Assembly: GCF_013122565.1 (NCBI RefSeq)
Contig: NZ_CP053258.1
DNA: 64,000 nucleotides
Source: Escherichia coli
GTDB taxonomy: Bacteria; Pseudomonadota; Gammaproteobacteria; Enterobacterales; Enterobacteriaceae
Reading direction: 5' to 3' (one strand)
Below are positions 40,576 through 40,984 of this stretch, piece after piece. Each line of letters starts with the position of its first letter. Position 1 is the first letter of the stretch. The notes beneath the pieces were generated by a model. It saw only the letters and a list, made by a program, of their open reading frames with translations, was not told the DNA's origin and did no database searches. The position numbers were made by a program, and so were the translations under genes.

Positions 40576-40984
40576 AATAATAAGAGCGTTGCAGTTGTTT
40601 CAATTGTTACTCAAAAATGGTTTAGTTATCGCCCAAAATGAATTATAGGTGCTATGAATATATTATATTCAGGGATATTTATTTTTTCATTGGATCTTTA
40701 TTTGCATAATCTGAATGGTGTAGCCGAAAAATGTCAGCATCCTAACAGCACCCGGATTTACGGTGAAATTAATCATCCATCACAGACCGGTCAGTACTGC
40801 TACCAACCGGTCTTAACTTGCTCATCGTTATAATTTTGTTGGTAACAGTTCGGGAAACAAGGAATTCCTTCCGGAACACCCCTGACATCATCCGATAGCA
40901 TTGACGTCAATCATCGGCGCGACGATGAGTTTTTTAATCGCATCATAGGGTGGCAACGGTCAGCACGATTACGGGTCATAGCAA

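Follow-up and report, generated by a model that had tools for sequence, protein, structure and literature searches.

The described elements closest to the locus reported here are (i) Escherichia coli pseudogenes in which a deletion has fused what is left of two genes, (ii) the phage family phrog_4499 of small Cys-rich proteins, (iii) intrinsic terminators, whose GC-rich stem-loop stands a few nucleotides past a stop codon, and (iv) REP/BIME and other dispersed palindromes, which are short, stable and extragenic. A literature search on yiiE, yiiF and yiiD yielded nothing beyond one RpoS-holoenzyme genomic-SELEX peak, placed somewhere in the K-12 yiiD>yiiE spacer (PMC5493296).

The window (the whole 64,000-nt stretch of E. 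coli DNA that was analysed) contained the fdoI–fdhE/yiiD (fabY) region of the chromosome, in which the interval 40600–40980 carried no PGAP annotation. This interval very probably represents a decayed locus, composed of a deletion-fused gene pair plus the former transcript-end hairpin of that pair and holding no working element; it is a case of ordinary gene decay and not a new RNA gene. The features of the region were as follows:

38523–39452, plus strand: fdhE
39781–40038, minus strand: yiiF, encoding a ribbon-helix-helix (RHH) protein
40242–40469, minus strand: yiiE, encoding a ribbon-helix-helix protein
Between yiiE and nadS, about 600 nt: gap, most of which is the interval 40600–40980
40600–40783, minus strand: spacer from the hairpin to the yiiE promoter-repeat region, single-copy, non-coding and E. 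coli-specific
40784–40813, minus strand (as RNA): stem-loop AGACCGGUUGGUA-GCAG-UACUGACCGGUCU, 13 bp including two G-U pairs
40821–40929, minus strand: 3' remnant of gene 2, about 36 last codons, disabled by an in-frame TGA and a 1-nt deletion, its stop codon lost
40930–40979, minus strand: 5' remnant of gene 1, ATG plus about 16 codons, MTRNRADRCHPMMRLK, in the same register as in CFT073 and SB0258h1
40982–41028, minus strand: hairpin (inverted repeat) between the nadS stop and the gene 1 ATG, -23.2 kcal/mol, z -3.1
41064–41354, minus strand: nadS
41355–41666, minus strand: RelE/HigB-like gene
41820–42803, plus strand: alpha/beta hydrolase gene
42972–44825, minus strand: 617-aa ORF, intact in the window

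B2 strains (e.g., CFT073) and the syntenic locus in another enterobacterial genus harbored two small minus-strand genes from nadS to yiiE: gene 1 encoded a basic, Cys-rich protein of about 70 aa (MxRxRAERRHH…CSCWMCG; phrog_4499), and gene 2, located about 60 nt downstream of gene 1, encoded a basic protein of about 92 to 95 aa (92 aa in E. coli; MSTFNTRKDR...YYW/YYY). Both ends of the two-ORF block of SB0258h1 and CFT073 aligned to the window with the middle absent; the alignment to these two strains showed a net 394 nt missing from the window versus the intact two-gene form, and the block, counted from the gene 1 ATG through the gene 2 stop, measured 159 nt in the window versus 553 nt in CFT073. 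BLASTN of the window to SB0258h1 gave 78% identity over 289 nt (E 3e-61), and a tblastn search of the window with gene 1 of CFT073 gave E 7e-5. What was left in the window was the first ~17 codons of gene 1, joined through a poly-A tract with the final ~36 codons of gene 2. The start of gene 1 read MTRNRADRCHPMMRLK in the window versus MTRNRAERRHHMVRLKK in CFT073, and its stump ended in the A6 tract 40930–40935, which was the deletion junction; the gene 2 stump translated as HRRADD*RQCYRMMSGV and then, past the frameshift, as VPEGIPCFPNCYQQNY, the intact protein reading RRRADDRRQCHRVMQGDDPEGIVWFPDCYPQIYYY. A gene remnant had been among the suggestions of the original prediction, and it was correct for 40821–40979, where the stumps of the two small minus-strand genes are fused. 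The window contained neither a full-length phrog_4499 ORF with the RAERRHH N-terminus and the PCxCSCxMCGH cluster, the cysteine cluster having been deleted, nor an uninterrupted gene 2 ORF of ~76 to 98 aa with both terminal motifs, only the C-terminal stump being present.

The junction GCGATT-A(6-7)-CTCA(T/C)CGTCG was common to six of the six deleted-form sequences compared (the window, strain 104, wlxctx60, O157:H7 EC4115, SWHEFF_69, and a contaminant contig), and this single shared junction indicated a single deletion event. Ancestrally, a two-gene cassette with a stem-loop directly past the gene 2 stop occupied the stretch from nadS to the RHH genes on the minus strand; a single deletion then started at the slippage-prone poly-A tract at codon 16–17 of gene 1 and took away what followed of that gene, the spacer between the two genes, and ~56 codons from the start of gene 2. 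A stop codon and a frameshift later arose in the stumps, and the A-tract changed by 1 nt. The hairpin 40784–40813 and the spacer of ~180 nt survived because both lay outside the deletion.

The sequence comparison was also applied to 5426 complete E. coli genomes, using the 596-nt segment 40470–41065 as the megablast query, and the segment was present in nearly all of them at a median of one place per genome. Three forms were recognized: the full query (~2098/5426), a K-12-like form matching 40470–40857 only, and a B2-type form matching the two ends only; the full two-gene form was found in ~1270/5426 genomes, these frequencies (~2098 and ~1270) being BLAST coverage classes and not per-genome alignments. 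The K-12 match stopped at 40857, beyond which K-12 ran directly into the first 35 to 39 codons of the 617-aa ORF; window positions ~40858–44721 (~3.86 kb), containing nadS, the higB-like gene, the hydrolase gene, and most of the 617-aa ORF, were missing from K-12. Contigs L012 to L015, from the other enterobacterial genus, were 81% identical to the window in yihY–dtd–yiiD and 85% identical in fdhE, and displayed the gene order yihY, dtd, yiiD, hydrolase, higB-like, nadS, gene 1, gene 2, RHH, PIN (vapC), and fdhE. The cassette, present at the same site and in the same order in this outgroup, was thus ancestral, and the window allele was derived from it by deletion. One further allele was seen in strain 19SZHZ886Rt (L009 2623–4290), in which two copies of IS1 replaced everything from the yiiE promoter region to fabY, so the interval was a recurrent target of rearrangement.

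The hairpin 40982–41028 carried the gene 1 Shine-Dalgarno sequence AGGAG in its 3' arm, was conserved in L012, and was part of a 99-nt direct repeat (40985–41083 and 42802–42900; 87% identity). The two repeat copies flanked the nadS/higB-like/hydrolase block, and each included a hairpin and the end of the coding sequence of a nadS-type gene. O157:H7 EC4115 and SWHEFF_69 contained no nadS–hydrolase block, which was consistent with recombination between the 99-nt repeats. Among the other neighbors, the 617-aa ORF had no Pfam or PADLOC match and elsewhere in E. coli was split into a 304-aa product (named 'transposase' by PGAP) and a partial pseudogene; yiiF (window 39455–40038; L008 134–750) resembled an orphan VapB-type antitoxin. 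A PIN/VapC toxin gene stood directly 3' of the yiiF homologue in SWHEFF_69 and in the outgroup genus, and the corresponding slot in the window held REP-like repeats, with sub-threshold Rfam matches to naRNA4 and ES036 at 39597–39751. An upstream region with the core TTTTTGCGAGGCGTTTTCCAGA was repeated at 40061–40160, 40500–40599, and 41782–41808, preceding yiiF, yiiE, and the divergent promoters of the higB-like and hydrolase genes, respectively, and the core was also found, as TCTGGAAAGCGGCTCGCAAAAG on the coding strand, 5' of the RHH–PIN pair in L012; this repeated core may be a common operator or promoter for these addiction-type modules.

The intact parent genes were examined in turn. Gene 1 homologues from CFT073, L012, and L010 matched phrog_4499 over nearly the full profile length (E 1e-13 to 1e-15), and no other family was found for gene 1 in Pfam, NCBIfam, PADLOC, or PDB sequence searches; gene 1 of CFT073 (MTRNRAERRHH...PCICSCWMCGH...) was 70% identical to the ORF located 5' of gene 2 in the outgroup locus. 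A word-indexed search with gene 2 returned near-identical E. coli relatives only, while an exhaustive HMMER search recovered full-length homologues of 76 to 98 aa with 36 to 58% identity and with conserved N- and C-terminal motifs (family motif MSxFNTRKDR...DPDG..W.PD..P..YYW); gene 2, a member of no named family, had no match in Pfam, PHROG, NCBIfam, PADLOC, or PDB, and its AlphaFold2 model, built from a 13-sequence alignment, had a mean pLDDT of 61 and a pTM of 0.32, too poor for a fold search. By tblastn, the gene 1 family occurred in 449 phage records and gene 2 in one, 60 nt after gene 1. The two genes were adjacent in six separate contexts, with settings in E. coli B2, the outgroup chromosome, a Salmonella IncFIB plasmid, contigs beside a dnd cluster, and a contig beside Wadjet jetA/jetB. 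The dN/dS ratio was 0.11 to 0.29 for both genes where synonymous divergence was measurable. Judged by their homologues, the phrog_4499 match, dN/dS, and the recurrent pairing, the parent ORFs are real genes.

Annotation of gene 1 varied among strains, and so did the length of its A-tract (A6, A7, or A8). The 70-aa gene 1 was left without annotation in CFT073 (L006 1854–2063) and in Salmonella plasmid pCFSAN024441_01 (L022 2733–2942), while a frameshifted gene 1 in SB0258h1 (L003 3740–3961; A7 versus A8) was annotated as the 73-aa hypothetical protein WP_001550354.1; this 73-aa 'membrane' ORF was rejected as a frameshift artefact, the A8 tract of CFT073 giving the 70-aa phrog_4499 protein. In L019, a decayed second gene 2 copy (…NPASWNRLTNTRPHAA*…/…DYDDVVFPIDHKSNIYFY) occupied ~2790–3000 instead of gene 1, so tandem gene 2 paralogues exist; the gene 2 homologue of L019 adjoined abiH and hipA. 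The intact module was found on chromosomes and plasmids, under purifying selection, with toxin-antitoxin, Dnd, Wadjet, AbiH, and HipA genes as neighbors. It is conceivable, though unlikely, that the intact pair would constitute a small system, new to science, for defence, addiction, or anti-defence, which E. coli has repeatedly lost by poly-A slippage, with the hairpin possibly still serving to insulate yiiE from the higB-like/nadS operon.

The hairpin 40784–40813 had been described in the original prediction as two copies of the self-complementary octamer gaccggtc. The first copy, GACCGGTC, was exact at 40785–40792, but the second (40805–40812) was AACCGGTC, with one mismatch; the two were separated by 12 nt. 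A perfect 8-bp inverted repeat lay one base out of the octamer register, AGACCGGT (40784–91) and ACCGGTCT (40806–13), and the predicted hairpin was borne out as a real inverted repeat spanning 40784–40813 that folded better than local shuffles. The octamer was not enriched in the window (17 matches at ≤1 mismatch versus 17.5 expected). The minus-strand RNA folded into a 13-bp stem with a GCAG loop (-20.8 kcal/mol, z -4.0, none of 200 shuffles as good), and the plus-strand RNA into an 8-bp stem plus a small inner helix (-14.6 kcal/mol, z -4.2), the better fold on the coding (minus) strand being due to the G-U pairs. The hairpin began 7 nt beyond the codon that corresponds, in the alignment, to the stop of ancestral gene 2. 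The window, K-12, and B2 alleles had the same two arms, although window and B2 shared only 78% identity over the surrounding ~290 nt; the loop and top pair varied among E. coli alleles (A-U, G-U, U-U, or deletion). SWHEFF_69 had lost 20 nt through recombination of the two GACCGGT direct repeats, which collapsed the hairpin to a single copy, and the hairpin is thus dispensable.

No U-tract followed the stem on either strand in any E. coli allele (the sequence past the stem was GUGAUGGAUGAUUAA on the minus strand and UAACUUGCUC on the plus strand), and a terminator scan made no call, so the hairpin is no canonical intrinsic terminator. Homologous cassettes carried, at the same distance past gene 2, an 11-bp stem plus U7 in L012, a stem plus U7 in L022, and a stem plus a short U run in L016. 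By its position, the hairpin is most likely a relic transcript-end signal (a terminator or a 3'-end protecting stem) of the dead cassette, and transcription running on from the higB-like/nadS operon into yiiE may still be limited by it. An exact-pattern scan for the hairpin, covering one genome per species, returned a single match, located in a contaminant contig, and gave no cross-species information. The matching contig (L005, NZ_POTY01000570.1; 445 nt, coverage 0.76) belonged to a Micromonospora craterilacus assembly and was 90% identical to the E. coli locus; its presence there almost certainly reflects contamination with E. coli DNA.

The spacer 40600–40783 aligned to every other E. coli allele and, with a 19-nt indel, to K-12 yiiD–yiiE intergenic DNA (82 to 89% identity). 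It had no counterpart in outgroup L012, in which ~85 nt separated the gene 2 stop from the promoter element of the RHH gene, it contained no conserved ORF on either strand, small minus-strand ORFs included, and its folding was not better than that of shuffled sequence. The interval showed no similarity to any other part of the window, the yiiE/yiiF repeat units included; a 25-nt match to these units (repeat D6) was considered as paralogy and rejected, being best read as chance. Ordinary K-12 intergenic sequence, named in the original prediction as the finding that would tell against its reading, accounted for 40600–40857 (yiiD–yiiE, 82 to 89% identity) and not for the remainder of the interval.

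The prediction had also suggested the edge of an inserted island, and the boundary of a genomic island gained relative to K-12 (its attachment or insertion site) would fit the break of K-12 colinearity at 40857/40858, the K-12 lack of nadS, the higB-like gene, the hydrolase gene, and most of the 617-aa ORF, and the 99-nt direct repeat flanking the nadS–hydrolase block. The break itself was real, but truncated stubs stood on both sides of the K-12 junction (the last 12 codons of the gene 2 stump on one, the initial 35 to 39 codons of the 617-aa ORF on the other), so the K-12 site was not an intact empty site; the outgroup genus held the hydrolase, higB-like, and nadS genes and genes 1 and 2 at the same place; and no integrase, tRNA, or att-like repeat was found at 40857. 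The direct repeat began at 40985, outside the interval, and explained the loss of the nadS–hydrolase block in O157:H7 and SWHEFF_69 but not the K-12 breakpoint. The stubs and the outgroup cassette together identify the difference as a deletion of ~3.86 kb in K-12 and not as an insertion in the window, and an island boundary is very unlikely. There is likewise a very slim chance that the interval encodes a small regulatory RNA with the GACCGGT hairpin as its core, another suggestion of the prediction. The hairpin was stable (z about -4 on both strands), its arms were conserved among E. coli alleles, and a sigma-70-like match (ATGAAA-17-TATAAT) was present at 40690–40662 on the minus strand; this match, however, sat 3' of the hairpin on that strand, was directed into yiiE, and had no -35 element in K-12 owing to a 19-nt deletion. 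The counts of promoter-like and terminator-like matches in 40200–41400 equalled those of shuffled sequence, in agreement with the earlier remark that the stretch was not obviously promoter-like, and the single terminator-like match (40911–40928, plus strand) spanned the deletion junction and folded no better than shuffles (z +0.2). The covariance-model scan proposed with the sRNA suggestion found nothing in the interval: Rfam 15 cmscan of 39000–43000 gave no match within 40470–41063 even at E ≤ 10. The flanking 146-nt segments folded no better or only marginally better than shuffles (z +0.3 and -2.4), no U-tract followed the stem, the hairpin was deleted in SWHEFF_69, and the exact-pattern scan, which took one genome per species, gave no sign of it outside E. 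coli. The sRNA suggestion thus found no support.

It is also highly improbable that the two ACCGGT palindromes act as a DNA operator for a dimeric regulator (e.g., YiiE, YiiF, or NadS) and not as an RNA structure. Each arm was itself palindromic (GACCGGTC), the arms were conserved with a variable loop, and many autoregulatory RHH and HTH genes were present at the locus; but the site lay ~315 nt 5' of the yiiE start, past the repeated yiiE promoter element 40550–40576, the motif was not repeated at the yiiF, yiiE, or higB-like promoters, the G-U asymmetry favored an RNA stem on the coding strand, and SWHEFF_69 was reduced to a single copy. The chance that a small protein is made, either from a 59-aa plus-strand ORF (40654–40833) or from the 22-codon remnant ORF starting at 40979, is close to negligible. 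The prediction that 40600–40980 held no ORF of ≥60 aa was true, narrowly, the 59-aa ORF being the longest; both ORFs were present in the window, and the remnant ORF retained the gene 1 Shine-Dalgarno sequence and ATG. Comparison with seven other E. coli strains, however, showed no conservation of the 59-aa ORF (missing from strain 104, with differing frames or lengths in all the others), and the length of the remnant ORF was set by the A-tract (22 codons in the window with A6, ~30 codons in A7 strains), with a 1-nt deletion at codon 4 shifting its frame in O157:H7 and SWHEFF_69. The decayed, deletion-fused gene pair with its former transcript-end hairpin was thus retained as the reading of the interval.

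An unannotated gap is thereby read as a pseudogene scar, and the difference from K-12 is redirected from an insertion in the window to a deletion in K-12. The yiiD–fdhE interval is a graveyard of small addiction-type modules in E. coli. No fewer than three alleles are common there: the intact cassette, the one shortened by 394 nt, and the K-12 form with 3.86 kb deleted. The genuine gene 1 of CFT073 and of the Salmonella plasmid is missed by PGAP, which names the 73-aa artefact in other strains. From a locus of otherwise low interest, the intact gene 1/gene 2 pair, a conserved and uncharacterised module, is the one point worth pursuing.

Compared to the known elements, the hairpin resembled REP/BIME and other dispersed palindromes as a short stable extragenic palindrome 3' of a gene, but it differed from these and from MITE-like repeats in being single-copy and in going unmatched by the REP-related Rfam models, which did match 39597–39751. 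With intrinsic terminators it shared a GC-rich stem-loop a few nucleotides past a stop, on the same strand and at the terminator position of homologous cassettes (L012 and L022), but the E. coli hairpin had no U-tract and came closer to a 3'-end protecting hairpin or a degenerate terminator. The stump 40930–40979 had its parent in phrog_4499, whose profile the intact homologues matched; the window kept ~17 codons of this gene and is thus not a functional member, and in chromosomes and plasmids phrog_4499 was paired with gene 2, which was almost absent from the phage collection (one record). The closest likeness was to deletion-fused pseudogenes of E. coli: the locus displayed homology to intact genes, one homopolymer junction, a later stop and frameshift, and no PGAP annotation, and it differed only in that its parent genes were largely unannotated themselves.
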